DNA of 64,000 nucleotides. It comes from a virus (Duplodnaviria; Caudoviricetes). The notes below the pieces were generated by a model. It was not told the DNA's origin, ran no database searches, and worked only from the letters and a program-made list of their open reading frames with translations. The stretch lies in IMG/VR virus record IMGVR_UViG_3300032327_000792; one strand, written 5' to 3'. A program made the position numbers and the translations under genes. Positions 6,520 through 52,431 of the stretch are shown here, in pieces. Each line of letters starts with the position of its first letter. Positions within the stretch are counted from its first letter, which is position 1.

Positions 6520-7620
6520 TTATAAACTGGGCAATGCGTTGTAGTCAAGTGTATCGGACATTATTCCGATTACATAATTGGTTGACTCATTTTCCTGCAA
6601 TGCAGTTTGTTTGTTTGAAGTATTGACGTGTTTGTTGAACCACGGGATTGGTGTTGACTTTGGCGCCGGTGTTTGATACTTGATGCCAATTTCTTTGAGT
6701 GCGCCCACTGCTGTGTAGTCCACAAAGTCCTTGAGAATAGCGGCGTTGAGGCCAATCACAGGGCCTCGGTTGAACAAATAGTCTGCCCATGATTTTTCTT
6801 CGCGAATCACATCTGCATACATGGCATAGACTTCTGCTTCACACTCCGCTTTGGCTGCCAAGAAGCGTGGATCCTCTTTGACCACCTGATTGATCAAGAA
6901 TGCTGTCCAATCTTTGTGTAAAATTTCGTCTTGTAGAATCAAGCTGATGATGTTGCCGTTGCCGATAAAAATACGATTCTCTACCATGGCCAAACTGGTG
7001 GCAAACGATACCATAAAGCGGAATGCTTCCAGTCCGTAGCTGGCATTGAGCGCCAACCAAATTGCTCTAATGTGTTCGCGCTCGTCGATTGTTTCCCCAG
7101 CTTCTTTTCTACAGTTAATCACGTGTAGGTCGTCGTAGTAGCGACCAATACTGGAAGCCATGTTGATAATTTCTTGGGTGTCGTGAATTGTGTTGAACAC
7201 ATCTTTTGGCACATTGTAAACGTTACGAATAATGTGACTGTATGAACGACTGTGAATATTGGTTTCAAAGAATGTCCAGTTGTAGACCAACGCTTCTAGT
7301 TCTGGCAAACTGATCACAGGTGTAAAAATTTGGCTTGGACCACGACCTTGTAAACTGTCCAGTGCTGTTTGACGCAACAGGTTTGATGTAAAAATATGAC
7401 GCACTGTTTCAGATGCATCTTTGAAATCTGCTGCATCCTTGGTCAATGATACTTCTTCGGGTACCCAAAAGAAACCACGGGCCTCTTGTTCAAATTTTAC
7501 AATCTTGTTGTACTTGACTTCTTCAAAGCGTTGAATGGTCACAGGACCGGCGGGATCCAGGAACATCTTGCGTTGCAGATAATCTGTTTTTGTTGTTAGG
7601 TTATATTGTTGTTTGCTCAT
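6520..7620 (-). CDS. nrdB: Ribonucleotide reductase class Ia beta subunit
   Basis: FWVPEEV, LDSLQGR, ETNIHSRSY (radical Tyr), LEAFRF and QDEILH di-iron ligands. Confidence 0.97.
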   Translation of the reverse strand: MSKQQYNLTTKTDYLQRKMFLDPAGPVTIQRFEEVKYNKIVKFEQEARGFFWVPEEVSLTKDAADFKDASETVRHIFTSNLLRQTALDSLQGRGPSQIFTPVISLPELEALVYNWTFFETNIHSRSYSHIIRNVYNVPKDVFNTIHDTQEIINMASSIGRYYDDLHVINCRKEAGETIDEREHIRAIWLALNASYGLEAFRFMVSFATSLAMVENRIFIGNGNIISLILQDEILHKDWTAFLINQVVKEDPRFLAAKAECEAEVYAMYADVIREEKSWADYLFNRGPVIGLNAAILKDFVDYTAVGALKEIGIKYQTPAPKSTPIPWFNKHVNTSNKQTALQENESTNYVIGIMSDTLDYNALPSL

Positions 7621-8762
7621 AATTTTTCTTCGATTAAATTAGATAAGTTAGTGCCACGAATATTATCCAGTGTTAACAAATATTCGTCTCTTTGATTTTT
7701 CAATACTGGATCAAACTTGTATTTTTTTAACTCTTGTATTGTTTGGTCTACTATGTGTTGATTGGTTGTAGAAGCTATCTGCAACAATTCATTCATAAAG
7801 TTATTGACAATATCTGGTTCAATACTATTTATTGTGAGATAATCAGGATTGGTTAACACTGTACTGCCTATAGACAGTTGATGTTTGTCGCACCATTGTA
7901 TCACTGGTATCAACGTCTTTACACTAAAACATTGCAACACATAATTAATATTAAAATACACATTTGGCAAGGCACTTAACCTCAATGCATTGGACTCGAC
8001 CGCGTTCCAAGATGAAAGAAATCTAATTTCATTGTTATCACTGCCAATGCCATCTAGGCTTACGCTTATCCAGGCCTGTTTGAATTTTTCAAGTGTGTTT
8101 AAAAATTCAGTATTGAGTTTGGTAGCATTGGTAGTTATGCTTATTGTTACCAACTCAGGATTTGGTATTTCGTTCAACAAATTTATCACATATGGAATCA
8201 TAGTAGGTTCGCCGCCGGTGAATTTGATCCATCGTGCTTGTGATTTAAATTTGTCAAGAAAATTTTTAAATTCTTCAGAATCTGGCCAATTATAATTTGC
8301 GTCGGTATTTGGAATATTGTAGTAATCTAGATTTTTAAATGTATCAAGATGAATTTTGTATTCGGACATTAATTGGCTTGACGAATGACCGTTACACATT
8401 ACGCATTTTAAATTGCACAAATTACCTAATTTAAAATCAAATGTAGTTACAGTATCATCAACTATCCAATCTTTATTTAATTTTGAAAAATCAAAATATT
8501 TTGAAAACTCAGCATTGTAAATCTTTCGTAAACTTTTTTTCCCATTGTCTTCATCATTCCAACATTGAGAACAAGATTTTATTTTAGTTCCATTGTGCAA
8601 ATCCTTGCGAACTTCTTGCATCTCGACTGAATTAATCCAGTTATCAAATTGAGTAAAATAATACTCATCGGAACCCTTCCACACACAGCATGGCGTTAAT
8701 TTACCAGTCGGAGTCACGCAGGTATGTGTCCAGGGAGCAATACAAAAAGTTTTAGAGTTCAC
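7617..8762 (-). CDS. Radical SAM protein with N-terminal auxiliary Fe-S (twitch/SPASM-like) motif
   Basis: CNLKCVMC, GGEP, N-terminal CIAPW...PCC...CSQC. Confidence 0.9.
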   Translation of the reverse strand: MNSKTFCIAPWTHTCVTPTGKLTPCCVWKGSDEYYFTQFDNWINSVEMQEVRKDLHNGTKIKSCSQCWNDEDNGKKSLRKIYNAEFSKYFDFSKLNKDWIVDDTVTTFDFKLGNLCNLKCVMCNGHSSSQLMSEYKIHLDTFKNLDYYNIPNTDANYNWPDSEEFKNFLDKFKSQARWIKFTGGEPTMIPYVINLLNEIPNPELVTISITTNATKLNTEFLNTLEKFKQAWISVSLDGIGSDNNEIRFLSSWNAVESNALRLSALPNVYFNINYVLQCFSVKTLIPVIQWCDKHQLSIGSTVLTNPDYLTINSIEPDIVNNFMNELLQIASTTNQHIVDQTIQELKKYKFDPVLKNQRDEYLLTLDNIRGTNLSNLIEEKL

Positions 8763-8837
8763 AAATAATTAGTCCGATTGTAATGGTTAAGATATAAAAT
8801 AATAAAGCATACCAGCAATCTGTCTGCTTTGATTGCT

Positions 8838-8867
8838 ATTATAGCATGTTTTCAGACTAGTTGCCAA
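8838..8867 (-). promoter_or_regulatory. sigma70-type promoter with extended -10 (TTGGCA-18-TGcTATAAT)
   Basis: In the intergenic gap upstream of the radical SAM gene and nrdB. Confidence 0.65.
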
Positions 8868-8878: not shown

Positions 8879-9379
8879 TTATTTTCTTACTTCTTTGGTC
8901 GCGTCCGGCCACCATTCTGGATCAGGATCCAGCTTGTTTTTGTACAGTTGTTTGATACGGCGTTCGTATTCTTCTTTGGAGCCTTTGATTCTTTCTGAAA
9001 CCACATCCAACACATAGTTCAATGTTACAGCGTTGGCGCTGAGTGTGGCGCATCTTGCAGTGACTTCATTTTTCAACAAATCCAACAGGATGCTTTCTGA
9101 TGATTCTGCCAGTACACGTACAAAACGTTTGGGCACATGCAGATCTATTGTGCTGTACACATAGTCATAGTGAGGTGCCGGACAACAGTGCAAAATATAT
9201 TCATCTTTGACTTCGATGCGTTTGAATCCATCCTTGTCGTACCACACTGCACGATTGTCGGTGAGTTCGGCTGGTACGCCCAGTTTTTTTGTCAGACTTT
9301 TTACAAGCTCTACAGGCTCTTCGTTGCGCCAGGCCGCAGTGGTGTTTTTTGATTCTAAAAGTATGTCTGATATTTTCAT
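8879..9379 (-). CDS. Hypothetical late protein with capsid-targeting-like N-terminus (MKISDILLES)
   Basis: Start moved to 9379, 4 nt downstream of a TAAATA motif. Confidence 0.6.
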   Translation of the reverse strand: MKISDILLESKNTTAAWRNEEPVELVKSLTKKLGVPAELTDNRAVWYDKDGFKRIEVKDEYILHCCPAPHYDYVYSTIDLHVPKRFVRVLAESSESILLDLLKNEVTARCATLSANAVTLNYVLDVVSERIKGSKEEYERRIKQLYKNKLDPDPEWWPDATKEVRK

Positions 9380-9389
9380 GATGTATTTA

Positions 9390-9992
9390 TTATTGCTGAA
9401 CCCAAAAGCCCAGACGATCGCCTCCGGGACTTGCATACCATGTGGTATTTGGGGGTTGTTCAGTGGGCTGATCTTGCCAAACTGGATATATGACGTTGCC
9501 GTTGTGATTGCTAAAATCGTCGTTCCACCGCAGATGCACTTCTATAACCTTGCCATCTACATATTCCACATTGACCCAGGGTGCCATCTTCCATAAATCT
9601 TCCAGTACTGCGGGAAACGGATATTGATCTGAGATTCGTTCCCAGCGACAGAATCTATCCAATCGGTCACTGTTTCTAAATCCTTCTACTGCTAATTCTT
9701 GTATGCCATAATGGAAATCCACTGATGTGTGGCGACCTTCAAAACATTCTGTCCAGAAAAAACCATCCGGTACAGAATCTGTGTCTGCAGGAGTCAACCA
9801 AACTTTTTGGGCACCTCGGCTCATCATGCGAATGTTGGTTATGGGACGCACAATATACCAGTCTGCTCGAGGAACTGCAATGCCTGCTGGTGCTGCTAGG
9901 TGGCCCATTTTGCGTGCCAGTATCAGTTTGTCGTAGATCCACAAGTAATCCACAGGACACTGCGACCACACATCCTTGTCATCTATAAACAT
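9390..9992 (-). CDS. Hypothetical protein, possibly ATP-grasp-like
   Basis: YIVRP...GA...ECFEG.H.SVD spacing resembles ATP-grasp motifs; weak. Confidence 0.35.
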   Translation of the reverse strand: MFIDDKDVWSQCPVDYLWIYDKLILARKMGHLAAPAGIAVPRADWYIVRPITNIRMMSRGAQKVWLTPADTDSVPDGFFWTECFEGRHTSVDFHYGIQELAVEGFRNSDRLDRFCRWERISDQYPFPAVLEDLWKMAPWVNVEYVDGKVIEVHLRWNDDFSNHNGNVIYPVWQDQPTEQPPNTTWYASPGGDRLGFWVQQ

Positions 9993-9993
9993 G

Positions 9994-10629
9994 TCAGTAC
10001 TTGTTGCTGGCCAACACTATCCGGCAAATGTGTTCCAATCGTTCTATGTGTTCATAGGCACGCCATGGACTAGTGTCAATAGCAACTACTCCGTGTCCTT
10101 TGATGCCCACAATATCATAGCCAATGTTGCCTTCGCGATCCAACTTTAGATTTTCATGACAACGATCCGCAAGTTCTTGACTGATTGGAGGCACATCTCC
10201 CACATTAGGTGCTACTCTGGTATAACGATTGAGTTCTGGAAATGCCGCACTCACAGTACTCAAATCAATCCCGGCATGCATAGCTGCAATACAGTAGGTG
10301 GGGTGAACGTGTACTACCACTCTCACTTCGTTTGAGTGTTGTCCCATTCTTTTTTGCAACCCAAAATGCAAAGGTATTTCTCCACTGGGTCGTAATCTGG
10401 CACTGATATCAGTGTATGGCAATTCTACCCAGTCGATGTCCTGATCTGGACGTGTGGTTATACCAATCTTTTTAAACTGATCTGGTTGCAGAGTTTGCTT
10501 ACGCACACCACTGGGAGTGATGTAGAAATGATCACGGTCGTGATGACGGATACTTACATTGCCATCACGACTGGTAATCCAATTGCGTTTGTACGCATCC
10601 AACATTACATCACATATAGTTTCTAACAT
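9994..10629 (-). CDS. Class II aldolase/adducin family protein (FucA/MtnB/DrdA fold)
   Basis: DGNVSIR, ITPSG, PSGEIPLH, VVHVHPTY, GHG metal-binding motifs. Confidence 0.9.
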   Translation of the reverse strand: MLETICDVMLDAYKRNWITSRDGNVSIRHHDRDHFYITPSGVRKQTLQPDQFKKIGITTRPDQDIDWVELPYTDISARLRPSGEIPLHFGLQKRMGQHSNEVRVVVHVHPTYCIAAMHAGIDLSTVSAAFPELNRYTRVAPNVGDVPPISQELADRCHENLKLDREGNIGYDIVGIKGHGVVAIDTSPWRAYEHIERLEHICRIVLASNKY

Positions 10630-16128: not shown

Positions 16129-16851
16129 TCACGTATTTAGCACATAAAACTGCTCTACACGTTTCCACCACTGACTACGATAATGTTCAAATTCAGCACC
16201 TTCCAAAACAAATTCCTGATACTGTGGCTCTGTTAGTACATTGCCCATGTCATCTACTTCGGGCTTGACACACATCAAAATCACACCTTTTTTGATGTCA
16301 GTGCCGTGTAATTCATTATGTGCTTCTGCGTAGGCACAGAGTTGTAGGAAATAATCCTCGATCCACTCAATCTTTTTGGGCTTGTTGGTTTGCTTGTAGT
16401 CCAAAATAGCCGGTTCATTTAGATGCATTCCAGCGGCATCTGTGGTGCCTGCGTATATGCCGGGAAAATACAGCGGAACTTCGTAGCCCCAGAACTCATT
16501 GACTCGATCAGTTACCCCTTGATCAATCACTGTTTGTGCCATGGCATGACTGGCCCACCCAAAAGGATTGGTTCCTCTATCTTTTAGTTCACCATGTTTG
16601 ACATAGTGTTCCAAGTAGGTATGCATACGTGTTCCACGGTTGGCAGCTTCTGTGGTGATCTGCTGTGCTTTGGCTTCGCCCACACGTTGGCGCCATTGTT
16701 GCAACGCCTGTATTTTTTCTGCTGGTTTGGTTCGATCCAAGATAGTTGTAACTGAAGGCAACTTGTTGCCGTCGGGTGTAGCATAAAAACGTTTGCCATT
16801 GACTTCTACTCTAGGAACTGGTGCATATTCAAATCGAGGATTGAACATCAA
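16129..16851 (-). CDS. PD-(D/E)xK exonuclease
   Basis: LPSVTTIL, E-x-x-L, GTTD, DYK and QLCAY motifs; no four-Cys cluster. Confidence 0.85.
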   Translation of the reverse strand: MMFNPRFEYAPVPRVEVNGKRFYATPDGNKLPSVTTILDRTKPAEKIQALQQWRQRVGEAKAQQITTEAANRGTRMHTYLEHYVKHGELKDRGTNPFGWASHAMAQTVIDQGVTDRVNEFWGYEVPLYFPGIYAGTTDAAGMHLNEPAILDYKQTNKPKKIEWIEDYFLQLCAYAEAHNELHGTDIKKGVILMCVKPEVDDMGNVLTEPQYQEFVLEGAEFEHYRSQWWKRVEQFYVLNT

Positions 16852-17168
16852 ATTCTAAAACTTTCTCCGCAACCACAGCGGTCTTTTTCTGCATCGTTGA
16901 TAAATTGAAATCCTTCGTTGAGTCCTTGTCGTACATAGTCCACAGTGAGATTTTTGAAATAAGGTTGATCTTTGCGATTGATCACCACACTGAATCCATC
17001 ATGTAGTTCTGCGTCATCGCCAGGTTGTAGAGTGTCCACATACTCCAGCACATAAGCCAGCCCACTACATCCGGTGGTTCTAACACCTATGCGTATGCCC
17101 ATGCCACCACCACGTCGATCTAGGTTGCGTGCTATTTTACTGGCAGCTGCCGGAGTAACTGCAATCAT
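16848..17168 (-). CDS. iscA: A-type Fe-S carrier, IscA-like
   Basis: TTGCSGLAY and CGCGESF; start moved to MIAVTPAAA (ATGA overlap with upstream stop). Confidence 0.92.
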
Positions 17169-17476
17169 GCCGAGAAGCTTGATCCACAACCGCAGGTTGT
17201 TTGGGCGTTAGGATTCGTGATTGAAAAGCTACTGCCATTGACATCGTCTTTGAAGTCAATCACTGCACCAGCAAGATATTGCATGCTCATGGCATCTACC
17301 AGCACGCCGCTGACTTCAAAGTCATCTTCGCCGGTTACTTCATCCAGTGTAAATCCATATTGAAATCCTGAGCATCCGCCGCCTTGCACAAATGCACGAA
17401 CCTTTAGATTGGCGTTGTTTTCTTCGGCCAAAATGTCGGCAATTTTTGCCTGTGCTGTTTCAGTTATTGTTATCAT
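17165..17476 (-). CDS. erpA: A-type Fe-S carrier, ErpA-like
   Basis: [13 protein letters not shown] and [14 protein letters not shown]. Confidence 0.9.
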
Positions 17477-17856
17477 ACTGTTCCTTGTTTGTTTCGGTAA
17501 TCTTGGATGGCGGCTTTGATTGCGTCTTCGGCCAAGATGCTACAGTGTATTTTCACAGGCGGCAACGCAAGTTCTTCGGCAATTTGACTGTTCTTGATTG
17601 AGCCTGCTTCGTCGAGACTTTTGCCTTTGACCCATTCGGTAACCAGCGAGGAGCTCGCAATCGCCGATCCACAGCCGTAAGTTTTGAACTTGGCGTCTGT
17701 GATTACTCCATCTTCCACTCGGATTTGTAAACGCATCACATCTCCGCAGGCAGGAGCACCCACTGTTCCTGAACCCACTGAAGGGTCAGTGGCATCCATT
17801 TTGCCCACGTTGCGTGGATTTTCATAGTGTTCAATTACTTTTTCTGAATAGGCCAT
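17473..17856 (-). CDS. iscU: Fe-S cluster scaffold IscU
   Basis: [46 protein letters not shown]. Confidence 0.97.
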
Positions 17857-35567: not shown

Positions 35568-35597
35568 TGTTAGCTCCAAAATCTAATTTATAACAAC

Positions 35598-35626
35598 ATT
35601 GTAACAAAAAGTCTGTTTTTGGTCAA
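35598..35626 (-). promoter_or_regulatory. sigma70-type early promoter TTGACC-17-TACAAT
   Basis: Immediately downstream of the terminator hairpin. Confidence 0.85.
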
Positions 35627-35630
35627 CCAT

Positions 35631-35658
35631 AAAAAAACCCTTGTAAAAACAAGGGTTT
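35631..35658 (-). terminator. Rho-independent terminator
   Basis: 10-bp stem AAACCCTTGT/ACAAGGGTTT, 4-nt loop, U-tract on the minus strand. Confidence 0.85.
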
Positions 35659-37300: not shown

Positions 37301-38065
37301 ATGAAAAAAATTGTATTGGTAACAGGTGGGTTTGACCCAGTCCATAGCGGACACATAGCGTATTTTAAATCTGCACGATCAATGGGCGATATGCTGATTG
37401 TGGGCTTAAACAGTGATGAATGGTTGGAACGCAAAAAAGGTCGAGCATTCATGCCCTGGAACGAACGTTTGTGTATTGTCAATAACTTGGCCATGGTCGA
37501 TGAAGTGTACACATTTGATGATGAAGACAACAGTGCCCGACATTTTATTCAACAGGTGCGAGCACACTACCCTGCGTCAGAGTTAATTTTTGCCAATGGC
37601 GGTGACCGAACTCAAGACAACATACCAGAAATGGATGTAGTAGATTCAAATTTGACTTTTGCGTTTGGAGTTGGCGGATTCAATAAAGCTAATTCTAGTT
37701 CGTGGATCCTTGAAGAATGGAAAGCACCCAAGACAGAAAGACAATGGGGATACTATCGAGTGTTACACGAAACTGCTGGTATGAAGGTAAAAGAACTCAC
37801 TGTGAATCCTGGATGCAGTTTAAGTATGCAACGACACTGGAAACGTGCTGAGTATTGGATTGTGAGTGAAGGTAGTTGCGTAGTCAACATGCGGATGGAT
37901 GGCGGCTATCAGTTGCCCAGTGTTCAATTGAACAAACACCACAGCCACAAAATACATGTTGCTGAATGGCATCAGCTGACCAATCCTGGTGATGTACCGT
38001 GTAGAATTGTAGAAGTGCAATATGGTGAAAACTGCCGTGAAGAAGACATTGAAAGACAAGCATGA
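37301..38065 (+). CDS. Cytidylyltransferase-family (HxGH) nucleotidyltransferase fused to a mannose-6-P isomerase-type cupin
   Basis: VTGGFDPVHSGH, GLNSDEWL, NGGDR, NSSS; C-terminal WGYY...SMQRH...EYW...HQL cupin; start moved to MKKIVL. Confidence 0.88.
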   Translation: MKKIVLVTGGFDPVHSGHIAYFKSARSMGDMLIVGLNSDEWLERKKGRAFMPWNERLCIVNNLAMVDEVYTFDDEDNSARHFIQQVRAHYPASELIFANGGDRTQDNIPEMDVVDSNLTFAFGVGGFNKANSSSWILEEWKAPKTERQWGYYRVLHETAGMKVKELTVNPGCSLSMQRHWKRAEYWIVSEGSCVVNMRMDGGYQLPSVQLNKHHSHKIHVAEWHQLTNPGDVPCRIVEVQYGENCREEDIERQA

Positions 38066-38748
38066 TCCCTATTCCAATCTTTGTTGGATATGATCCGAGA
38101 GAAGCTGTGGCCTATCATACCTGCGCTAACTCAATTATTAGACAGGCCAGTCAACCTGTGGCCATTGTGCCTTTGGCATTGAATTTGTTCACGGACTACA
38201 ACGAAACACACACAGATGGTAGCAATCAGTTTATCTACAGTAGATTTTTAGTTCCGCATTTAATGGGCTACTCGGGCTGGGCTATCTTTATAGATGGTGA
38301 CATGATTGTGCGTGACGACATTGTCAAACTTTGGAACTTACAGAAAAGCCACGTTGACGTTATGGTGGTCAAGCATGATTACAAAACACGAATGACTGAA
38401 AAATATCTTGGTTCCAAGAATGAAGACTATCCACGTAAAAATTGGTCGAGTGTGATACTGTGGAACTGTGCCAATCATCCCAACAGAAAGCTAACTCCAG
38501 AATTTGTCCAACAAGCCACTGGAGCATACCTACATCGGTTTAGTTGGATTGACGACAACCGTATTGGAGAACTACCTCCGGAATGGAACTGGTTGCCCGA
38601 CGAATACGGTGCCAACCCCGATGCCAAACTGCTACACTACACACTGGGTGCACCATGCTTTCACGAGTTTGCCACAACACCACAAGGTGACGAGTGGCAT
38701 CGCGAACACATGTTGGCTGACTATTGTTTGCAACGATCTACAGATTAA
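38062..38748 (+). CDS. GT-A fold glycosyltransferase (GT8-like)
   Basis: FIDGD DxD, NWSSVILWN, EWNWL, LLHYTLG. Confidence 0.8.
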   Translation: MIPIPIFVGYDPREAVAYHTCANSIIRQASQPVAIVPLALNLFTDYNETHTDGSNQFIYSRFLVPHLMGYSGWAIFIDGDMIVRDDIVKLWNLQKSHVDVMVVKHDYKTRMTEKYLGSKNEDYPRKNWSSVILWNCANHPNRKLTPEFVQQATGAYLHRFSWIDDNRIGELPPEWNWLPDEYGANPDAKLLHYTLGAPCFHEFATTPQGDEWHREHMLADYCLQRSTD

Positions 38749-39386
38749 ATCCAGTGAGCCTGGACCAATGAATGATAGCCCATGGTGCTGGGCTTTTGTG
38801 ATACTTTTCTAAACAGCAACATTTTTATCTGACTGAGATCTCTGCGTACATCTTTGTGGCTTGCTATGTGAAACCACTCCGCAGGGCAATGATCAGTGAG
38901 TACAGTGTGTGGAGTGTACTCACTGATGATAGCTTGATCACCATACAAAGGCGGAACGCTATACAATGACTCCCAATGGCTCAGTGGCTTGTTGACGAAT
39001 GTATTCCAGAGATTGCTGTGATCTCCGTGCCAATACATAAATGCACTGGAGTGTATGTTTTTATCTGCTTCAATCCACATCACAAATTGTTTGTGTTGAA
39101 TACGATCAATTATGTCATCAAGGTTGCCACAAATCACAGTGTCTAAATCTAAATACAAGGATGGACCTGTGAGTGCGCCAGGTTTGAACAGTTGCATTTT
39201 TGACCAAAATCCATAATCACCCGATTCAAGTTCAATTCTTTCACAGTTGACCGCACAGTCACTGAAACAAACAAATCGATGTGGTTGGGTTAAATTGCGT
39301 TGAACACCACGTTGTAATTTGTCAACCCATTCAGCTGTGTAACCTACTTTGCCGCCTTGGCGCAACACACATACAACGTTAAGCAT
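38745..39386 (-). CDS. GT-A fold glycosyltransferase
   Basis: WSKMQLF, YLDLD DxD, SSAFMYW, GDQAII. Confidence 0.75.
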   Translation of the reverse strand: MLNVVCVLRQGGKVGYTAEWVDKLQRGVQRNLTQPHRFVCFSDCAVNCERIELESGDYGFWSKMQLFKPGALTGPSLYLDLDTVICGNLDDIIDRIQHKQFVMWIEADKNIHSSAFMYWHGDHSNLWNTFVNKPLSHWESLYSVPPLYGDQAIISEYTPHTVLTDHCPAEWFHIASHKDVRRDLSQIKMLLFRKVSQKPSTMGYHSLVQAHWI

Positions 39387-39918
39387 AGCGTTCTAGTACC
39401 ACTAGTCCAGAGCCCCGATTACAGTGTTCTATGATATGCCATTCATGATTGTAATGCAAAAATGTAATCACGGCCTCAAACACTCCAGGCCACTCGGTGG
39501 GATCGTGAAGCACAATATACTTTTGAGCACGACAAGCATGACGATCTAACTCTGCCAAACAATGTTTTTTGGTATGCACAGTATCAATAAAAAGTAAATC
39601 GCAAGGCTCAATTTCTATTTCCAGACTGTTGGCTATGGCAAATTCAAAGTCAACACCACTGGTATTGGCACAATGTTTTAGTTCATCCAATATAGACAAG
39701 TAGGTGTCTGTGATATCATAACTGCGTAATTTTTTTGGACTGCCAGATAACCAGGCACAGGTACTGAGTCCGGTGTAAACACCAAACTCAACTATGCTGT
39801 CAACTTGGCTGGCATATCGTTGATAGGTATCAAACCGATCTGGACTATCGCCTAGCCAAGCAATGGGTTGAATTTTTAGTTCAATGAAATCTTTTCGAAG
39901 TTCTTGTAAGTTTCTCAT
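39379..39918 (-). CDS. Class I SAM-dependent methyltransferase
   Basis: VEFGVYTGLST motif I, DLLFIDTVH, IVLHD; start approximate. Confidence 0.8.
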   Translation of the reverse strand: MRNLQELRKDFIELKIQPIAWLGDSPDRFDTYQRYASQVDSIVEFGVYTGLSTCAWLSGSPKKLRSYDITDTYLSILDELKHCANTSGVDFEFAIANSLEIEIEPCDLLFIDTVHTKKHCLAELDRHACRAQKYIVLHDPTEWPGVFEAVITFLHYNHEWHIIEHCNRGSGLVVLERYA

Positions 39919-39922
39919 AATT

Positions 39923-40606
39923 TTAACCAGCATATTTGTAAACAGTGTCGTGAACCCACGCAACGTGAATTTCATAATTCCACGATTTTAACAGATTGTT
40001 AATTTTTTCTTGTGACCAGCCATATTCATCACCGCTGCCATTTGTTTCCAACACAATCAATGGCCGTGATTTGGCAATGGTTTCTTTGGCTCCTAGCAAC
40101 GCAAATGCTTCAAATCCTTCTATGTCTAAATGTATTAAATCTGGATCTAGATTCAATGAATCAATTGTGATTTGTTTTATATTGCCGTGCCCTTTTATTT
40201 TTAATGCACCAGTGTTGGTTTCATTCCATCTTGGGTTGGTTTCTAGTTCAATCATTGATTCTATATCACCTAAGGCTGCTTGATACTTTACAACATTTTC
40301 TTCTGGAACATTGCGACACAAACAAGTAAAGTTTCTATGGTCTGGTTCTAGTGTTACAACTGATCGAAACAGTCGACTATACTGTTTGGGATAAAGTCCA
40401 GCATTGCCGCCGGCCTGAACAACTAAGTTTTTACGTTCACACAAGCAGGCAATTTGAACAGGCAAATCCCAATGCCCTATTTTGTTTAACCATTTCCATG
40501 CCCAGATATCTTCGCTAGGCCACAACCATGCTCCAGAATGCCTACGGCTTTCTCTATATTCTAAACCCAGCAATTCATCGGTATCTTGCACCCTGTGTTC
40601 CTTCAC
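39923..40606 (-). CDS. FkbM-family methyltransferase
   Basis: QAGGNAG, LEPD, AALG, TIDSL, LIHLDIEGFE. Confidence 0.85.
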   Translation of the reverse strand: MKEHRVQDTDELLGLEYRESRRHSGAWLWPSEDIWAWKWLNKIGHWDLPVQIACLCERKNLVVQAGGNAGLYPKQYSRLFRSVVTLEPDHRNFTCLCRNVPEENVVKYQAALGDIESMIELETNPRWNETNTGALKIKGHGNIKQITIDSLNLDPDLIHLDIEGFEAFALLGAKETIAKSRPLIVLETNGSGDEYGWSQEKINNLLKSWNYEIHVAWVHDTVYKYAG

Positions 40607-40614
40607 TATAAATA
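40607..40614 (+). promoter_or_regulatory. T4-type late promoter TATAAATA
   Basis: Exact consensus upstream of the GT25 gene; an opposing TAAATA on the minus strand lies at 40627-40632. Confidence 0.75.
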
Positions 40615-40638
40615 AACGACTACTATTATTTATTCACC

Positions 40639-41481
40639 ATGAAAGCCTACATAATTTACCTTCCAGACCGTGAACACAGCGTAACGCACAGTGCGTACAT
40701 GTTGGAGACACTAAAGTCATATGGACTAGACGCTTACTTGCACAAAGGTGTACCCGGTGATCATGCGGTAAAACTTGCTGCCAGATCCAAAAAAACTCTG
40801 TATCCTTACAGCATTAAAAATCGCACCATCAACGACGCAGATCTTAAAAGACTAATTCGTCCTGAATTATACGAAGAATTCAAAAAAAGATATCACTACA
40901 CAATCATTGAACGTCAACTGATTGGCGAAAATCACATAGGCAAACTAAGTCGTCCTGGGGTAGTCGGATGTTTTTACAGTCATTATTCATTGTGGGAAAA
41001 ATGTGTTCAACTCGGCGAACCTATAATGATCTTTGAAGACGATGTTAAGTTTTATCGAGGTTGGAATCCTATATCGTTCACCGGTGTTTTAATATTGAGT
41101 CTTGGAAAATCAAGTTTTTTAACTGAGCCCAACAAAACTTATTTGGAAAATCCCACTGGTGTGCCACGTGCAGTACCATGGAGAAATTTCAGCATGCCCG
41201 GTGCCAGTGGATACGCTCTTACCCCAGACGCAGCTCTGGGCTTGATCAAGTTTTATAGACCTTATTGGTATCCTGCAGACAATGCTATCAATCAGTACAT
41301 TACACCCATGTACATACACAACTATATCATGGGCCGAAACACATTGCCCGAAGAAGGCAATATATCCATGACCAAGTCAAAGGATTGGAATCAAGCAATG
41401 GGGACTGAAATAGTCGACAATGACTACAAAGAACTGGTTATTACTGCATCAACCGATCCCGGCACCGAGATTGATCAATGA
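40639..41481 (+). CDS. Glycosyltransferase family 25-like
   Basis: YIIYL...R, GCFYSHYSLW, MIFEDD, GYALTP. Confidence 0.85.
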   Translation: MKAYIIYLPDREHSVTHSAYMLETLKSYGLDAYLHKGVPGDHAVKLAARSKKTLYPYSIKNRTINDADLKRLIRPELYEEFKKRYHYTIIERQLIGENHIGKLSRPGVVGCFYSHYSLWEKCVQLGEPIMIFEDDVKFYRGWNPISFTGVLILSLGKSSFLTEPNKTYLENPTGVPRAVPWRNFSMPGASGYALTPDAALGLIKFYRPYWYPADNAINQYITPMYIHNYIMGRNTLPEEGNISMTKSKDWNQAMGTEIVDNDYKELVITASTDPGTEIDQ

Positions 41482-43189: not shown

Positions 43190-44023
43190 ATGCGTGTAAG
43201 TATTTTTGATCAGTATGGAGCTTTGAACAGTGCGCCAATCTTTGCCGCTATTCGTGCTGGTCTTGATCACATAGGTATTGAACATACCAGCATGGATAGC
43301 TCAGCCGATGTGGCTGTGATCTGGAGTCTGCTGTGGGCCGGACGAATGAAGCCCAATCAACAGATATGGGAACTGTACCGATCTACTGGGCGTCCTGTGA
43401 TTGTGGCAGAAGTAGGAATGTTGCGACGTGGCTTTACCTGGAAACTGGGCATCAACGGTACAGGGTTGACTGCTGACTATGGTCAAGAATTAATAGCCAA
43501 TCGTGCCAGTGCATTGGGACTCAGTACAAAACCTTGGAGCAACGCAGGATACAACATTGTGATTGCGTGTCAACGCAGTGACAGTGAGCAGTGGGTCGGA
43601 CAACCACCTACGGTTGCATGGTTGACAGAAACTGCACGCAAGATCAGACAATACAGTGACAAGCCCATGGTAATACGTCCGCATCCAAGACAGCGCATTG
43701 CCGACATTCCAGGTTGTGTTATTGAAAGCCCTCAACCTATTCCAGGCACCTACGACAGTTTTAATTATGATCAGTGTCTTAAAACAACATGGGCCGTGAT
43801 CAATCACAACTCAGGGCCTGGAGCTCAGGCCATTTTAAATGGTGTGCCGGCATTTGTTGGAGCCACAAGTTTGGCAGCGCCAGTGGGTAATGCAGACATT
43901 GCTGATATAGAAAATCCACTGCGTCCTGATAGAACACAATGGATTGAACAACTAGCGCACACTGAATGGACTATGCCAGAAATTGAATCTGGTATTCCAT
44001 TGTTGCGTTTATTGAAGCCCTAG
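43190..44023 (+). CDS. KpsC/KpsS-like GT-B glycosyltransferase
   Basis: VIRPHP, HNSG, AILNGVP pattern. Confidence 0.6.
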   Translation: MRVSIFDQYGALNSAPIFAAIRAGLDHIGIEHTSMDSSADVAVIWSLLWAGRMKPNQQIWELYRSTGRPVIVAEVGMLRRGFTWKLGINGTGLTADYGQELIANRASALGLSTKPWSNAGYNIVIACQRSDSEQWVGQPPTVAWLTETARKIRQYSDKPMVIRPHPRQRIADIPGCVIESPQPIPGTYDSFNYDQCLKTTWAVINHNSGPGAQAILNGVPAFVGATSLAAPVGNADIADIENPLRPDRTQWIEQLAHTEWTMPEIESGIPLLRLLKP

Positions 44024-44767
44024 GTGAGACAAGCTCTTGTCGAGCCAAGACACAATCAATTCGTGTTGGCGTAGTTCCCCGTGACGCTGAACACATTCAT
44101 CCGCGGATTCGGGCAACAGTTTTCGATCAGCTAACTCATACCACGTGGTTGTTTTTGGATTCATCGGCATGTGAGAACTTTTGTACACCACTGCACTTAA
44201 CCATGGATTGTTTGACTCTTTTTTAAAAAATCCTGATCTACAATCCCACCCGGCAACCGCCAGCATATGAATCAAACTGACCATGGTGTGATGGTAATAC
44301 ACACCGTTGGGCTGATTGAACACTTGTTGTCTGGCTTGATAATTTGTTGTTTGTGGAACAACAATTGCCAACATGGCGCCATCACTGGCAATATTCCACC
44401 ATTTGCTTAGAGTTCCTATTGGATCTAGAGCATACTGGAAAGAATCATGACACCATAGCACATCAAACAATGTTTTCTGTTTGGGTATGATTGTGGTTTC
44501 AAAGTCCACGGATTGATATGTAATGTTTGAATATTTTTTTGCTATTGTCAACTGAGGGGCTAAATCGACTCCAATACAATCAATATTCAGCGGCTGAGGA
44601 GTGTCTTCTCTTGTGGTGCGAGTAGCCCACCATTCTAAATCTAAGCCAGAGCCACAACCTAGATCTACCAAGGTTCCGATACTGGCCATGAAATCGTCGT
44701 ATTCGTACAACATGTTCAACGTGTTTAAACTATGTGCGTGACTTTCTTCTGCGTTTCGAAATGTCAT
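44009..44767 (-). CDS. Class I SAM-dependent methyltransferase
   Basis: LVDLGCGSG, IGVD, FDVLWCHD; start moved to MTFRNAEES (ATGA overlap with uvsY). Confidence 0.85.
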   Translation of the reverse strand: MTFRNAEESHAHSLNTLNMLYEYDDFMASIGTLVDLGCGSGLDLEWWATRTTREDTPQPLNIDCIGVDLAPQLTIAKKYSNITYQSVDFETTIIPKQKTLFDVLWCHDSFQYALDPIGTLSKWWNIASDGAMLAIVVPQTTNYQARQQVFNQPNGVYYHHTMVSLIHMLAVAGWDCRSGFFKKESNNPWLSAVVYKSSHMPMNPKTTTWYELADRKLLPESADECVQRHGELRQHELIVSWLDKSLSHLGLQ

Positions 44768-45216
44768 ATTGTGATATCCTCCATTCCTGCTGTGCGTAAT
44801 CTCACAATGTGCCCCATTTGCCATTGTTTGGCATCTAACCCTTTGAGTATGCCCAGCCACTTGTTGCGTAACAGTGCTACTTCGTTGATAATGGTTTCAA
44901 AGTCAATGACTTCGTCTTCGCCGTCTACGTACTTTTCAGCATCGCGACTGGTCAGTGCTCTAGCATATGCTTCCAAATATTTTTGAAAGTGTCGACGACG
45001 AATTTTACGTAATTGTATATTGAGAAAGTTAAGCACCGCTTCAATTTCTTGTAACTGATTGAAACGATGCTCAGTGATACCCGGCAACGCAGAGATGTTT
45101 TTCTCTACCAAGCCACCTATTCTACAATCACGCTTGGCATCTCCTAACTCTCGTTCGTAGTGTTGAATAAAATCAGGAATGTTGCCCAACGATGCTACAA
45201 CTTTGCTATACCACAT
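44764..45216 (-). CDS. uvsY: Recombination mediator UvsY-like
   Basis: Helical protein with KYLEAY...LTSRDAEKYVDGE...KGLDAK pattern; near uvsX. Confidence 0.75.
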   Translation of the reverse strand: MWYSKVVASLGNIPDFIQHYERELGDAKRDCRIGGLVEKNISALPGITEHRFNQLQEIEAVLNFLNIQLRKIRRRHFQKYLEAYARALTSRDAEKYVDGEDEVIDFETIINEVALLRNKWLGILKGLDAKQWQMGHIVRLRTAGMEDITI

Positions 45217-47873: not shown

Positions 47874-48938
47874 TTATGCTTCTCCTTCTAAAGTTTCTTC
47901 AGGAGTACTTACCTCAGTGTTTTGATTTTTGAAATCAGCAATAATTTTGTCCAGACAACCATCGTCGTTGGCTTCCCACTTTTTGCGGAATTGTTTGATA
48001 ATTTCGCCATCACTGGTAACAAATACTAGGCTATTGCCTTCTTTCTTGAGTAGACCTTTTTTCTCGGCCAAGTCGGTCATGCCTGAGTATGGACTCATTC
48101 CTGTGGTGTAAGGAATTTTAACTTGTACTCCTTCAAACGGTTTGGCATAACGTGTTTTCATGATCTTACAGGCTGCTCTGATGCCATTGACTTCTGAAAC
48201 TTTGTTGCCATCTTCGTCTTCTTTGAGTTTGAGTTTTTTCATAGCAACCACAATACTTGATGCATAGATAAAACCTTGACCTCCTGAAATCTTGTCATCT
48301 GGATCAAACATGTCCTGACTTGCATATGTATGGTTAGTACATACCATTCCAATATTATAACTGCCAAACATGTTGACACAGTTACGAACCAGGGCAGTAA
48401 GTGCTTTGGGTTTGCGGCCCAAGTCACCTTTCATTTCGCCTGCTTCAAACTGGTTGACATCAGTGGGAGTCAACAACATACCCAATGAGTCAATCACAAA
48501 TAATACCTTTGGACGTTCGCCATCCGGTAACGCTTTGTAATCACTCATGAATGTGGAAATCGTTTTGGCCACATCGTCGATCATGGCCATTGATAGTTTG
48601 AGCAACTTGCCTTCGCTGGTATCTACTCCCAAGGCCTGCAACCATGCTTCGTCTAGGGCATTTTCACTGTCTACCAACACAACAAAGATACCTTGCTCTT
48701 GTGCGTGTTTGACAATGTTGCCACTGCAGATGTAACTCTTGCCTGCACCAGAATCTCCCGCAAACACAGTAACCTTGCCCATTGGAATACCTTTGTTAAA
48801 GTCTCCCGAGATCAAATAGTTCAAGGCAAAATTGCCTGTTGAGATCCAGTCTGTTGGATCGTTAAATCCAATACTAAGACCGTCGATTGATTTTGTAATT
48901 TCCTTGCGGAACTTTGATACGTCAAATGGTTTTGCCAT
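47874..48938 (-). CDS. uvsX: RecA-like recombinase UvsX
   Basis: AGDSGAGKS, DSENA, VIDSLG, NHTY, SGGQG, KTRY; start moved to MAKPFD. Confidence 0.95.
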   Translation of the reverse strand: MAKPFDVSKFRKEITKSIDGLSIGFNDPTDWISTGNFALNYLISGDFNKGIPMGKVTVFAGDSGAGKSYICSGNIVKHAQEQGIFVVLVDSENALDEAWLQALGVDTSEGKLLKLSMAMIDDVAKTISTFMSDYKALPDGERPKVLFVIDSLGMLLTPTDVNQFEAGEMKGDLGRKPKALTALVRNCVNMFGSYNIGMVCTNHTYASQDMFDPDDKISGGQGFIYASSIVVAMKKLKLKEDEDGNKVSEVNGIRAACKIMKTRYAKPFEGVQVKIPYTTGMSPYSGMTDLAEKKGLLKKEGNSLVFVTSDGEIIKQFRKKWEANDDGCLDKIIADFKNQNTEVSTPEETLEGEA

Positions 48939-48939: not shown

Positions 48940-49872
48940 TTAATTTTCCTTAATAAAATTGTATAACTTTTCTGCATACTGTTGATGTTGCTTGACTCCA
49001 GGATGCAAATTGTCTGTTCCTAAATCTATAAACTTTATAGTATTTCCATTTATAATTAATCCCTGTGTTAAATCTATAAAATTGGGTAAGTCTTTTAATG
49101 CTATGCTGACCCAAGCAAAATCTAAAATATTTGCAATGTATAATTTTACTTTTATTTTTTGACAAAAATTTACAACTTGTAAAATTTCTCTCAATGAAGT
49201 TAATACTTGGGTCTCGCTTTCAAAATAATCAAGTGACCAATATTGATTTTCTTTGTCTACTGTGAAATAATCACTAATAGGTACTGGATTAAAATTCCAA
49301 TTTTTTGATATTGCAACCCTAGAAACGTTAGTTAATCCCCAAACTACTATATCTCCAGATCGTATATCGGATCTCAACAACTGATCAGCAGCCCAAAAAA
49401 TTGAGGATCCTCCTTGTGATAATGTTATCTCGGGTAAATTTAAATAGTTGGCCAGTAAACTTCCCCATCTATCATTGTAATCAACACCGTTGCCATGCGT
49501 TACAGAACACCCAGCAGTCCATAAAACTGGATTGTTATCAGTCCTTGTATTTTTTAAAAAATTAAAATCTTTTTTCCAAGTAAAAAAATTAATCTTACCA
49601 GGGTGTCTTGCAAGTTCGTTAAACAGTCTCCCATATGAAAAACAATTATCATTTGTAATATTAATATCCTCAGTGAGGTTAACCACTACAATTTCACTAG
49701 CATTGCTACATGCCACACTGATGTTTTCACAAGATAGATCTTCTACCGATGTGTGACAATTTACATCGGTGCTGCTAGCAACAATTTTATCTATGTTATG
49801 TCTGTCAAGCAGTATAGAATCGTTACCATTCCAGTCATAATTAACGGTTGAAATATATAATTTATTAATCAT
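48940..49872 (-). CDS. SGNH hydrolase-like protein
   Basis: AGCSVTHG block I variant and DNLHPG block V. Confidence 0.65.
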   Translation of the reverse strand: MINKLYISTVNYDWNGNDSILLDRHNIDKIVASSTDVNCHTSVEDLSCENISVACSNASEIVVVNLTEDINITNDNCFSYGRLFNELARHPGKINFFTWKKDFNFLKNTRTDNNPVLWTAGCSVTHGNGVDYNDRWGSLLANYLNLPEITLSQGGSSIFWAADQLLRSDIRSGDIVVWGLTNVSRVAISKNWNFNPVPISDYFTVDKENQYWSLDYFESETQVLTSLREILQVVNFCQKIKVKLYIANILDFAWVSIALKDLPNFIDLTQGLIINGNTIKFIDLGTDNLHPGVKQHQQYAEKLYNFIKEN

Positions 49873-51014: not shown

Positions 51015-51016
51015 TG

Positions 51017-51556
51017 TTACAACGGTCCCAGTGATATATCTGGAATTGTTAGCCCATTATTGTTGGCAAGATCCAGCAAGTTTACCAATGTTTTTGCCCA
51101 GTTATTGACATCAGCTGCTGGTGGAACAGTTTTGTCTAAACTGGTAGCTATGTTACCAGGACGAACTATGGTAATTTTTACACCAAGTCGACGGTTTCGT
51201 ATTTGTCTTACCGATTCCTCAAGTGTTACTTTTTGTATTCTATATTGATCCATGTCTAACCCCGGTAGCGTTGATACTGGATCTTGAGTCATCATAGTGC
51301 TGATCACAATGATATGTTTTTTTGTTCCTTGCCAACGTTGAGCCATTTCAAACAACAACTCAGTTTGTGCATATCCAGCTTGTGCATTGTTAACAAAAAT
51401 ATCGCATGGCTCAATTTGATCACAAATCTTGGGTGTATTCCTAATATTATTGCCTTCGCGTTTACTCAAACCAATGATCTCATAACCGTTGAGAGAGTAT
51501 TCTTGTGCAAGAGCTTGTCCTATACCCGCAGTATGTCCAGTGATTGCTATTTTCAC
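51017..51556 (-). CDS. Short-chain dehydrogenase/reductase (compact)
   Basis: ITGHTAGIG Rossmann motif, VNNA, YRIQK (YxxxK). Confidence 0.85.
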   Translation of the reverse strand: MKIAITGHTAGIGQALAQEYSLNGYEIIGLSKREGNNIRNTPKICDQIEPCDIFVNNAQAGYAQTELLFEMAQRWQGTKKHIIVISTMMTQDPVSTLPGLDMDQYRIQKVTLEESVRQIRNRRLGVKITIVRPGNIATSLDKTVPPAADVNNWAKTLVNLLDLANNNGLTIPDISLGPL

Positions 51557-52431
51557 GTGATTCCTCTCAGTTGTTTTTGTTTGCTTATGTATGCCTCTCT
51601 AGCATCGACATTGGCATTATCAACCGACAATTCAAACGGCTGTTTAAGATAAGCGTAACTGTGATCAATACTATGTTCCTTGGCAAATGCCTGTATATTG
51701 GGTAAGTCCGTGACATTCAATATACTAACTGTGGTCCATAAGTTCAACTTAATAGGCATTGTTTTATATGTCATTAAGTTATTGTAAAAAGTATCCCACT
51801 TGATAGGCCAACGCATGAATTCGTGTACTGGGCCAATGCCATCACAACTTACAGTCACAGTGACTTCTATTCCCTTATCGACAATATCTGTTAACTCATT
51901 GAGTACTACATTACAATTAGTGTTGAGCCTGAGAGTCCGCAAATTTGGTGGCAAGTTGGCCAATAATTGTTTGTAATTTTTACTGTAACTTGGCTCACCG
52001 CCGTTGATATCTAAATGTACAATACGGTCTTGCGGTAAATTCCAAAAGCGACTACTGTTGTTTACAATAGGAAAAGTTTTGCCGACAAGGGCCCCGATTC
52101 GTGTACTACATCCAGGATTACACGTTTGACAAGCAGCATTACATATGTTATCTAATACTCCGCCTACTTGTAAATAGTCTTTTTGTGTGGTTTGATTGTT
52201 CAATTGTGTGGCATATCCCCGTATGCTGTCGGGCTCAGTTTCCTGGCATCTTGCACATTCACTGGGCCATTGATCTGCTAGCATTGTTGCTTTGATTTTT
52301 GACAGCCATTCACTTGATTCCATCTGTTCCAGTGATTCAAATTGTGGTGGCGATACCATGTGCCCGCAACGACTCACTGTTCCGTTGGGATTAAATCTTA
52401 CAAAGTGATCAAGTCTTGGGCAATGCATCAA
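51553..52431 (-). CDS. Radical SAM protein with N-terminal auxiliary Cys motif
   Basis: CNAACQTC, GGEP, N-terminal CPRL...RC...CARC. Confidence 0.88.
   Translation of the reverse strand: MMHCPRLDHFVRFNPNGTVSRCGHMVSPPQFESLEQMESSEWLSKIKATMLADQWPSECARCQETEPDSIRGYATQLNNQTTQKDYLQVGGVLDNICNAACQTCNPGCSTRIGALVGKTFPIVNNSSRFWNLPQDRIVHLDINGGEPSYSKNYKQLLANLPPNLRTLRLNTNCNVVLNELTDIVDKGIEVTVTVSCDGIGPVHEFMRWPIKWDTFYNNLMTYKTMPIKLNLWTTVSILNVTDLPNIQAFAKEHSIDHSYAYLKQPFELSVDNANVDAREAYISKQKQLRGIT

Follow-up and report, generated by a model that had tools for sequence, protein, structure and literature searches.

Six radical S-adenosylmethionine (SAM) genes, named here rSAM1 to rSAM6 and all encoded on the minus strand, lie among the core genes of a 64,000-nt stretch of the IMG/VR record IMGVR_UViG_3300032327_000792. 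This whole stretch is called the window in what follows, and the phage that hosts the six open reading frames (ORFs) is an uncultured T4-like jumbo phage. The six genes form interchangeable accessory cargo and occupy insertion hot spots between core genes, namely nrdA-nrdB, the space from gp41 to a conserved 82-aa ORF, gp32-uvsX and uvsX-uvsY. Five of the six carry an auxiliary cysteine module ahead of the radical SAM core, and sequence comparison indicates that these are ancient separate subfamilies, individually acquired or retained, and not the products of a recent duplication burst. As to their role, the best overall explanation, that functional radical SAM enzymes are carried as accessory cargo and perform sugar-type chemistry, has in our view about an even chance of being right.

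Each ORF contains a single CxxxCxxC motif (CNLKCVMC, CNASCPWC, CQLSCLYC, CNMTCVYC, CNFSCVYC and CNAACQTC), a signature absent from all other real genes of the window, and from these intact genes the six are predicted to be functional radical SAM enzymes. Of 244 orthologue-like ORFs, 243 retain the motif, with no loss among those of rSAM5 (78/78, 60-86% identity) or rSAM6 (74/74). A previous sequence-only reading of the window had proposed six intact enzymes and an N-terminal auxiliary cysteine motif common to five of them; both points stand, the shared module being C-x17-20-C-x35-45-CxxC and the exception rSAM2. For two proteins the Pfam SPASM model itself matches this N-terminal module (residues 7-68 of rSAM1 and 13-75 of rSAM5). 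The same reading had noticed a C-terminal R-G/N tail in four proteins. The tail is real and, in the form D/x-x-x-R-G/N, it ends all five N-terminal-twitch (N-twitch) proteins, that of rSAM6 being KQLRG.

The N-terminal module, which the sequence-only reading presented as a new feature, is the defining feature of an already catalogued, uncharacterised family, NCBIfam NF033640 (N_Twi_rSAM, 'twitch domain-containing radical SAM protein'; profile of 398 positions, curated cut-off of 170 bits). No paper about this family came out of a literature search on either name. For five of the six proteins, all but rSAM2, NF033640 gives the best match over the full length. While rSAM1, rSAM3 and rSAM5 pass the cut-off, each over profile positions ~1-397, rSAM4 and rSAM6 miss it, NF033640 still being by far the best match for both (coverage of positions 2-384 and 12-335, respectively). 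By the curated threshold these two would be divergent relatives, not members, although nested in the family tree; about 60-90 C-terminal residues are in addition missing from rSAM6. What the five share with the family is the four-cysteine module ahead of the core, the motifs CxxxCxxC and GGEP, and the Arg tail at the C-terminus, this Arg being nearly invariant across NF033640. In the family alignment of 143 sequences, C31, C71, C74, CxxxCxxC, GG, S228 and R240 are invariant, and C13, S88, R90, E177, P178, N251 and R366 are at least 90% conserved. The four conserved cysteines of the module, three of them invariant and one at about 90%, would be compatible with one fully ligated auxiliary [4Fe-4S] cluster.

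In the case of rSAM2, NF033640 reaches 43.6 bits over profile positions 108-274, that is the core alone, and no N-terminal twitch module is present. Its CxxxCxxC lies at residue 18, and the Cys-rich SPASM/twitch-like segment is C-terminal, with a SPASM match (residues 244-278, 21.2 bits) slightly below the 21.5 cut-off. With the core at the N-terminus and the SPASM/twitch-like segment at the C-terminus, rSAM2 is a conventional radical SAM protein of a different kind. The earlier proposal of one enzyme family is right for five proteins out of six, and that of one system acting in parallel does not fit a set whose sixth protein is of another kind.

No model of a characterised radical SAM subfamily reaches its cut-off with any of the six proteins in the NCBIfam search; the viperin, MoaA, NirJ, AhbC/D, anSME, QueE, BioB-type and peptide-maturase models all stay far below. 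The prokaryotic viperin model NF038283 gives at best 41.9 bits (rSAM1) where 180 are needed, and the MoaA model TIGR02666 at best 41.9 bits (rSAM5) where 284 are needed, both over the core only. The anaerobic sulfatase maturase model TIGR03942 picks up rSAM2 alone, with 16.4 bits for the 349 needed. The 'AslB' names found on homologues are automatic JGI labels. The chemistry is as unexplained as the sequence-only reading had it.

That reading had also proposed a lineage-specific expansion, which our data do not support. The five N-twitch paralogues are mutually 20-25% identical, while each has outside representatives at 45-63% identity in a library of 1.8 billion proteins. In a maximum-likelihood tree of 119 rows they fall into five separate clades, each supported at 98-100 by the Shimodaira-Hasegawa-like approximate likelihood ratio test (SH-aLRT), rSAM6 being placed in a long-branch clade together with P0197. 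The approximately unbiased (AU) test rejects a tree in which the five form a single clade (dlnL 1393, p 2.6e-6). The family is, moreover, widespread in bacteria: a profile of the five proteins retrieves 6,100 clusters at 50% identity (E <= 1e-30), fused two- and three-module proteins included, and a scan of species-representative genomes gives 407 loci in Bdellovibrionota, Elusimicrobiota, Bacteroidota, Acidobacteriota, Alphaproteobacteria and others.

Two side observations concern the family as a whole. Many members consist of two or three complete N-twitch modules fused into one protein (800-1,200 aa, such as P0127 at L153:10001-13612 and P0128), which suggests that paralogues act together or in sequence. 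In addition, an 'Elusimicrobia' metagenome-assembled genome (MAG) comprises at least 15 separate contigs (CAIRTQ01..., loci L172-L206) that each carry an NF033640 gene, representing either an extreme cellular expansion or phage contigs binned into the MAG.

The cargo behaviour of the radical SAM genes appears when related loci are sampled by means of the core genes. In the window, the interval between gp32 and uvsX is occupied by a cassette in the order gp32 > sulfotransferase-like > rSAM6 > short-chain dehydrogenase/reductase (SDR) > rSAM5 > uvsX. Sampling with uvsX (83-91% identity) gave 57 loci holding both gp32 and uvsX. The full cassette is present in nine of them (with the sulfotransferase-like ORF undetected in one of the nine) and the sulfotransferase-like ORF with rSAM6 only in two, so that a whole or partial cassette is found in 11/57 loci, 9 of these 11 having the four genes together as a unit. 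Elsewhere the interval contains nothing, gp32 abutting uvsX (18/57), one unrelated ORF (18/57) or other cargo (10/57). A cassette fixed in the lineage was considered and rejected: it is indeed present in 46/46 loci fetched with rSAM5 itself, but this sample is biased, and sampling via uvsX gives the 11/57 above.

Similarly, the slot between gp41 and the 82-aa ORF was compared in 68 loci sampled with gp41 (81-98% identity). It holds rSAM2 in 18 of them, a different radical SAM gene of N-twitch type in about 20, unlabelled ORFs in about 14 and nothing in 16; ORFs in related loci were called by a simple longest-ORF procedure, and counts of unlabelled ones are approximate. Contigs with helicases 92-98% identical to that of the window still differ in the content of this slot. 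rSAM1 has only two close relatives in IMG/VR, differently placed within the nrdA-nrdB gap, and in the rSAM5-fetched sample rSAM3 and rSAM4 follow uvsX in 7/60 and 20/60 loci, respectively. No repeats flank the radical SAM genes, and no sign of a flanking mobility element was seen. In place of a stable invasion of replication operons, we thus observe interchangeable cargo carried by a minority of sister genomes.

The neighbours of these genes were verified as nrdA, nrdB, a DnaB/gp41-like helicase, a Toprim primase, UvsX, UvsY and gp32, and the junctions are close. Overlaps of 4 nt join rSAM1 to nrdB (rSAM1 stop on nrdB start), rSAM4 to rSAM3 and rSAM6 to the SDR gene; gp41 and rSAM2 overlap by 1 nt at the gp41 stop, rSAM3 and uvsY by 11 nt, and a 2-nt gap separates the SDR gene from rSAM5. 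The sequence-only reading had singled out the overlaps with nrdB, gp41 and uvsY and the abutments in the uvsX-gp32 block. These junctions are correct but not special: 41 of the 67 same-strand junctions of the window overlap or are at most 5 nt apart, so the tight coupling of the radical SAM genes is the norm of this genome, and they would be read through with their neighbours like most of its genes. The impression that they are AT-richer than the core genes was borne out by computation, with a mean GC of 0.371 for the six against 0.435 +/- 0.029 for 42 other window genes of at least 150 aa (Mann-Whitney p = 1.8e-5). In relatives, radical SAM GC lies below that of the adjoining core gene in 59/59, 57/57 and 55/56 cases. 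Low GC is a lasting property of the cargo and not the mark of a very recent transfer. For rSAM4, the TTG start at 47772 is probably wrong. A conserved 84-aa ORF located after uvsX (47618-47872, 63-72% identical in relatives) overlaps the first 43 codons of the rSAM4 ORF and, because it occupies this interval, the likely start is Met44/45 near 47643.

Coordinates of the radical SAM genes, their partners and other mapped genes of the window
Feature	Coordinates	Strand	Evidence and remarks
rSAM1, N-twitch radical SAM, 381 aa, between nrdA and nrdB	7617..8762	-	NF033640 277.6 bits; GC 0.328
Class II aldolase / MtnB-like sugar-phosphate enzyme	9994..10629	-	TIGR03328 1.6e-13 and other aldolase-II models, all below cut-offs
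A-type Fe-S carriers (two)	17165..17476, 16848..17189	-	Fe-S_biosyn 55.1 and 56.1 bits (cut-off 26.3)
IscU scaffold	17473..17856	-	NifU_N 178 bits, 1e-52 (cut-off 22)
rSAM2, conventional radical SAM, 335 aa	23576..24583	-	Radical_SAM residues 13-155; phrog_21308
GT8	38062..38748	+	Pfam 1.8e-6
Methyltransf_24	39379..39975	-	Pfam 2.1e-5
FkbM methyltransferase	39923..40606	-	Pfam 5.1e-9
GT25	40639..41481	+	Pfam 4.1e-15
Class I SAM-dependent methyltransferase, last gene of the gp32-to-uvsY run	44009..44860	-	Methyltransf_11/12/23/31
uvsY	44764..45216	-	phrog_231 1e-13; 87-91% identity to 150-aa ORFs of relatives, aligned from Met9
rSAM3, N-twitch radical SAM, 429 aa	45206..46495	-	NF033640 209.7 bits
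rSAM4, N-twitch radical SAM, ORF of 426 aa	46492..47772	-	NF033640 147.8 bits, below cut-off
uvsX / RecA-like recombinase	47874..48935	-	Pfam RecA 3e-14; 83-91% identity in sister contigs
Putative SGNH/GDSL-like ORF, 310 aa, variable cargo	48940..49872	-	GC 0.314, window minimum
rSAM5, N-twitch radical SAM, 381 aa	49869..51014	-	NF033640 258.1 bits
Minimal classical SDR, 179 aa	51017..51556	-	Pfam Epimerase 30.3 bits (cut-off 20.9); adh_short 25.8
rSAM6, short N-twitch radical SAM, 292 aa	51553..52431	-	NF033640 140.8 bits, below cut-off
Putative sulfotransferase-like ORF, 223 aa, first cassette gene after gp32	52409..53080	-	Short motifs
gp32 single-strand DNA-binding protein	53084..54070	-	phrog_1192 2.3e-68

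The partner genes offer the best lead to the function. The SDR gene shows the motifs KIAITG..AGIG (TGxxxGIG), NNAQ, a catalytic Ser (IST) and YxxxK (Y..QK) in 75 orthologues; this ORF is not uvsY. In the putative sulfotransferase, K31, S35, R69, P71, R74 and S77 are invariant, within I.KNGSS and R.P..R..SG motifs. We take these to resemble the 5'-phosphosulfate-binding (5'-PSB) and 3'-phosphate-binding (3'-PB) motifs by which sulfotransferases contact 3'-phosphoadenosine-5'-phosphosulfate (PAPS), and a language-model atlas gives a weak lead of the same kind, with Sulfotransfer_2 on 14% of a neighbouring cluster. The candidate SGNH-like protein has conserved GCS.T.G and D..HPG motifs, and the corresponding atlas lead is Lipase_GDSL or DUF6071 on 15% of cluster members. 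Beyond uvsY, the end of the operon adjoins a glycan-type gene cluster (38062..41481). The IscU gene of the window recurs in four of five relatives' genomes, among them each of the three with a completeness of 90% or more; a glutaredoxin, unmapped, also appears in the window's Pfam tally.

Related loci echo this composition. In the complete 357-kb relative G001, a tandem radical SAM array stands with genes for DegT, a carbamoyltransferase, a nucleoside diphosphate (NDP)-sugar epimerase/dehydratase, a GT4 glycosyltransferase, GDSL and tail-fibre proteins. The same array (L233/L234, 300-340 kb) also carries an APS-kinase-like P-loop gene (7.8e-7) and three DUF6071 genes; an adenosine 5'-phosphosulfate (APS) kinase would supply PAPS to a sulfotransferase. 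NDP-sugar dehydratase/epimerase and DegT genes accompany family members on other phage contigs, a triple-module member in a bacterial MAG is found amid GT1, GT2, PMT_2, DegT and transketolase-type genes, and in the relative L081 the aldolase-II-like gene is directly beside the rSAM1 homologue.

An AlphaFold2 model of rSAM5, built from the 143-sequence alignment with high confidence (predicted local distance difference test 96.4, predicted template-modelling (TM) score 0.93), has a beta-hairpin and helix module ahead of a partial TIM barrel, followed by a helical C-terminal region. In Foldseek (PDB, Swiss-Prot) and VIA-align searches with this model, the core barrel alone aligns with the top neighbours BlsE (Z 12.6; a sugar-nucleoside enzyme), anSME (12.0) and MoaA (12.0), over ~216-232 residues at 14-18% identity. 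PFL-AE, CteB, SkfB, SuiB and viperin are effectively tied with BlsE, which is also among the PDB sequence matches. Full-length structural matches are viral only, namely uncultured Caudovirales proteins (TM 0.7-0.86) and proteins of the Vibrio phages KVP40 and phi-pp2 (TM 0.62-0.71).

The data show that the genes are intact, to which family they belong, that their paralogy is deep, that they behave as cargo and which genes surround them; the substrate class and the reaction are inferred. Tailoring of sugars, nucleotide-sugars or glycans is the function that we favour, with a likelihood at or slightly short of one half. The 5'-deoxyadenosyl radical would take a hydrogen atom from a sugar, a nucleotide-sugar or a glycan-bound sugar, and the fully Cys-ligated auxiliary cluster would serve as electron acceptor. 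The latter role has been proposed for the four-Cys auxiliary cluster of BtrN in two-electron sugar oxidation (PMC9012708). The neighbouring SDR, sulfotransferase-like, SGNH-like and methyltransferase proteins would then complete the resulting keto, ene or rearranged intermediate, and glycosyltransferases would attach the product to a glycan of the virion or the cell surface. The phage IscU and the two A-type carriers presumably supply the two [4Fe-4S] clusters per enzyme, and they fit a phage that must load many two-cluster enzymes.

BtrN, the 2-deoxy-scyllo-inosamine dehydrogenase and founding twitch enzyme, is our mechanistic model; it has one four-Cys auxiliary [4Fe-4S] module and acts on a sugar-like small molecule. 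It is not, however, among the structural matches listed for the rSAM5 model, and there is no sequence-level membership. SPASM and twitch domains are normally C-terminal extensions of the core (PMC9012708), and this is where the auxiliary domain lies in enzymes of BtrN/MoaA type, whereas in five of the six phage proteins it precedes the core. BlsE (cytosylglucuronate decarboxylase), MoaA and anSME differ in the same manner, with C-terminal auxiliary domains, alignment of the core barrel alone and NCBIfam scores far below cut-offs.

Several points weigh against sugar tailoring. As far as the model goes, structural matches do not discriminate the substrate class: sugar-nucleoside, nucleotide (MoaA, viperin) and peptide (anSME, CteB, SkfB) enzymes tie within ~1.5 Z. 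The sulfotransferase and SGNH labels come from short motifs and language-model leads and are to be read as putative. For the 223-aa sulfotransferase-like ORF there is no Pfam, NCBIfam or PDB sequence match, its own profile gives chance-level PDB matches, and none of its 320 homologues has a Pfam domain or a name; for the SGNH-like ORF there is no Pfam, PHROG or NCBIfam match. The gp32-uvsX cassette itself contains no glycosyltransferase or nucleotidyltransferase. Family members in bacteria most often stand next to other radical SAM genes (33/133 neighbours in 39 loci), so that tandem paralogue arrays are a property of the family, and glycosyltransferases amount to only 2-4 of these 133 neighbours. 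Three conserved Arg suggest an anionic substrate but do not separate an NDP-sugar from a nucleotide. Finally, the genes lie in replication and nucleotide-metabolism operons, with no T4 late-promoter motif TATAAATA nearby, a location that also fits a nucleotide or DNA substrate.

This last point leads to hypermodification of nucleotides or DNA, in which the enzymes, expressed together with the replication genes, would convert (d)NTPs, nucleosides or DNA-linked groups into modified bases, nucleotides or chain-terminator-like molecules; we consider it unlikely, though it is the strongest of the rivals. The placement of the genes within the nrdA-nrdB, gp41-primase and gp32-uvsX-uvsY runs speaks for it, and so do the conserved Arg, which fit a phosphate-bearing substrate. 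Prokaryotic viperin and MoaA, both users of nucleoside triphosphates, are the next-best NCBIfam matches after NF033640 and among the top structural neighbours of the model, yet their scores come from the shared core alone, and the four conserved Cys of the twitch cluster resemble BtrN and not the open, GTP-binding Fe site of MoaA (PMC9012708). FolE and PTPS genes of 7-deazaguanine type lie within a few kb on related phage contigs, and KVP40 members stand beside QueC-like, NAPRTase-like, nadV and nrdA genes. On the other hand, a Pfam tally of the other window ORFs contains no DNA transglycosylase, hydroxymethylase or DNA glycosyltransferase, the partners (GT8, GT25, FkbM, SGNH-like, sulfotransferase-like) are of glycan type, and most sister genomes lack the cassettes, an unusual pattern if DNA were modified genome-wide. 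Phage contigs with members of the rSAM5 clade (L237-L239) carry GTP cyclohydrolase I, PTPS/QueD, an IMPDH-like gene, a Vut_1 transporter and a radical SAM of Fer4_12 type, which near the N-twitch genes look like a 7-deazaguanine-type set.

A bolder idea combines these elements and is, to our mind, improbable: the sulfotransferase-like/rSAM/SDR/rSAM cassette, transcribed with gp32-uvsX, would be a pathway to a new sulfated or rearranged sugar or nucleotide, placed on replicating DNA or used as a nucleotide analogue, and the swappable radical SAM cargo would form a diversifying anti-defence arsenal instead of tailoring glycans.

Alternatively, the enzymes could act on a virion protein or on a small phage peptide by cross-linking, epimerising or oxidising its residues, for which we see a slim chance. 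Many SPASM/twitch radical SAM enzymes do modify peptides, SkfB, CteB, SuiB, anSME, EpeE and TigE are among the sequence or structure neighbours, and bacterial tandem arrays often lack recognisable sugar genes; yet all peptide-maturase NCBIfam models stay well short of their cut-offs, and neither a RiPP recognition element nor a gene for a leader peptidase or a transporter was seen. The gene after rSAM2 in relatives is usually the 82-aa ORF, labelled as a virion structural protein in PHROGs, but its product has no Cys and no repeat. Both this ORF and the 84-aa ORF that follows uvsX occur whether a radical SAM gene is next to them or not, and for this reason they were dropped as candidate substrates.

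The least probable explanation, that of independent auxiliary metabolic genes, separate morons boosting host cofactor or anaerobic-type reactions with no common pathway, could draw on the spread over four loci with independent turnover, on the five different subfamilies, on the host-metabolism role proposed for the CP220/CPt10 radical SAMs by Timms et al. 2010 (PMC2853527) and on phage IscU and carriers that could serve host Fe-S proteins too (PMC5332604), but it is at odds with the absence of any cofactor-pathway model at cut-off (MoaA, NirJ, AhbC/D, QueE and BioB-type all far below), with the linkage of the four cassette genes as a unit and with tailoring enzymes that repeatedly co-occur with family members in phages.

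The placement of the phage itself comes from its T4-type gene set (gp32, UvsX, UvsY, gp41, primase, NrdAB and a T4-type terminase) and from its helicase, which shares 48% identity with the helicases of PA5oct-like and Atu_ph07-like jumbo phages. Megablast of the 44-53 kb region against cultured phages gave no match, hence no close cultured relative; tblastn of rSAM5 against cultured phages gave a single weak match (Ralstonia phage RsoM2USA, 22%), and a genome-contig scan queried with rSAM1 gave none. For related IMG/VR genomes of 320-357 kb, the completeness ratings are 93-100%. The five related records that were searched (183-357 kb) have 7-12 NF033640 matches each, with five or six in tandem and the others scattered. 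The moraphage lineage was also considered and rejected: its abstract (PMC12619734) describes a lack of much machinery known from other large phages, and the window has this machinery. As for uvsY, the true start is probably 45216. Sigma-70-like sites occur upstream of gp32 at 54198-54069, in a number not above chance, and a terminator-like hairpin at 43945-43913 (minus strand) follows the last gene of the gp32-to-uvsY run; across 43.8-54.4 kb, promoter- and terminator-like counts are at chance level. The late-promoter motif has two sites in the whole window, none near the radical SAM genes and not above chance.

Further features were noted elsewhere in the window. The nrdA-nrdB gap is a variable cargo region, with aldolase/MtnB-like and YHYH-domain genes at 9994-11747 (minus strand) and two ORFs of unassigned family at 8879-9992. 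A GIY-YIG/NUMOD homing-endonuclease-like gene (62741-63373, minus strand, GC 0.349) represents a further mobile insertion in the same co-directional run. Two adjacent paralogous genes (128 and 127 aa, 61641-62407, minus strand), for which no family was found, share DNA stretches of 78-85% identity and thus result from a recent tandem duplication. A 60-nt repeat, 82% identical between 3195-3254 and 35587-35646, lies in inter-ORF gaps at both places and may be a shared regulatory cassette (promoter or terminator). Finally, an 883-aa ORF (58631-61282, minus strand) contains a five-copy tandem repeat with a 51-nt period at 59142-59461; it may be the source of the window's unmapped pectate-lyase-like Pfam match, and would then be a fibre- or depolymerase-type protein and no polymerase.

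Large numbers of radical SAM genes in T4-like phages have been known since 2010. Published reports give 11 and 12 such genes for the T4-like Campylobacter phages CP220 and CPt10 (PMC2853527), an A-type carrier with 12 radical SAM genes for a T4-like marine environmental viral genome, where phage Fe-S assembly genes are linked to phage Fe-S enzymes (PMC5332604), and radical SAM cassettes in the hypervariable regions of pelagimyophages (PMC7029224). Our phage shares with those sets the many radical SAM genes, some of them in interchangeable modules, and the IscU, A-type carrier and glutaredoxin genes. It differs in the family concerned: CP220 proteins match NF033640 over the core only, with 31 bits or less, and are not N-twitch members, rSAM2 being 28% identical to CP220 gp080. 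The N-terminal twitch family, its subfamilies and cassettes between replication genes are not described in the term-searched passages of these three sources. Vibrio phage KVP40, a cultured T4-like phage, also carries related genes. Its KVP40.0260, KVP40.0261 and KVP40.0272 are NF033640-like over their full length (114-131 bits, profile positions 2-396), align with the rSAM5 model at TM 0.62-0.71 and lie near nrdA and nucleotide-metabolism genes, one of the three being two genes from a GT1 gene. They are nevertheless below the family cut-off, at about 16% identity, with QueC-like and nadV neighbours and no sulfotransferase-like/SDR cassette. New here are the formal evidence that the paralogues are five ancient subfamilies, their nature as swappable cargo at core replication-gene junctions, the recurrent four-gene cassette and the entry point offered by KVP40.

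The finding refines the open problem of multi-copy phage radical SAM genes and raises no new one. NF033640 is a very large family, and the phages of this lineage carry 7-12 copies along with their own Fe-S assembly genes. There is also a practical gain: a four-gene cassette small enough for joint expression and assay, natural variants with and without the genes among phages that are nearly identical, and a cultured phage, KVP40, whose three family-like genes are open to knock-out. If the substrates are nucleotides or DNA, these enzymes would represent a new class of phage modification; if they are sugars, a hidden layer of radical carbohydrate chemistry would take part in the surface interactions between phage and host.

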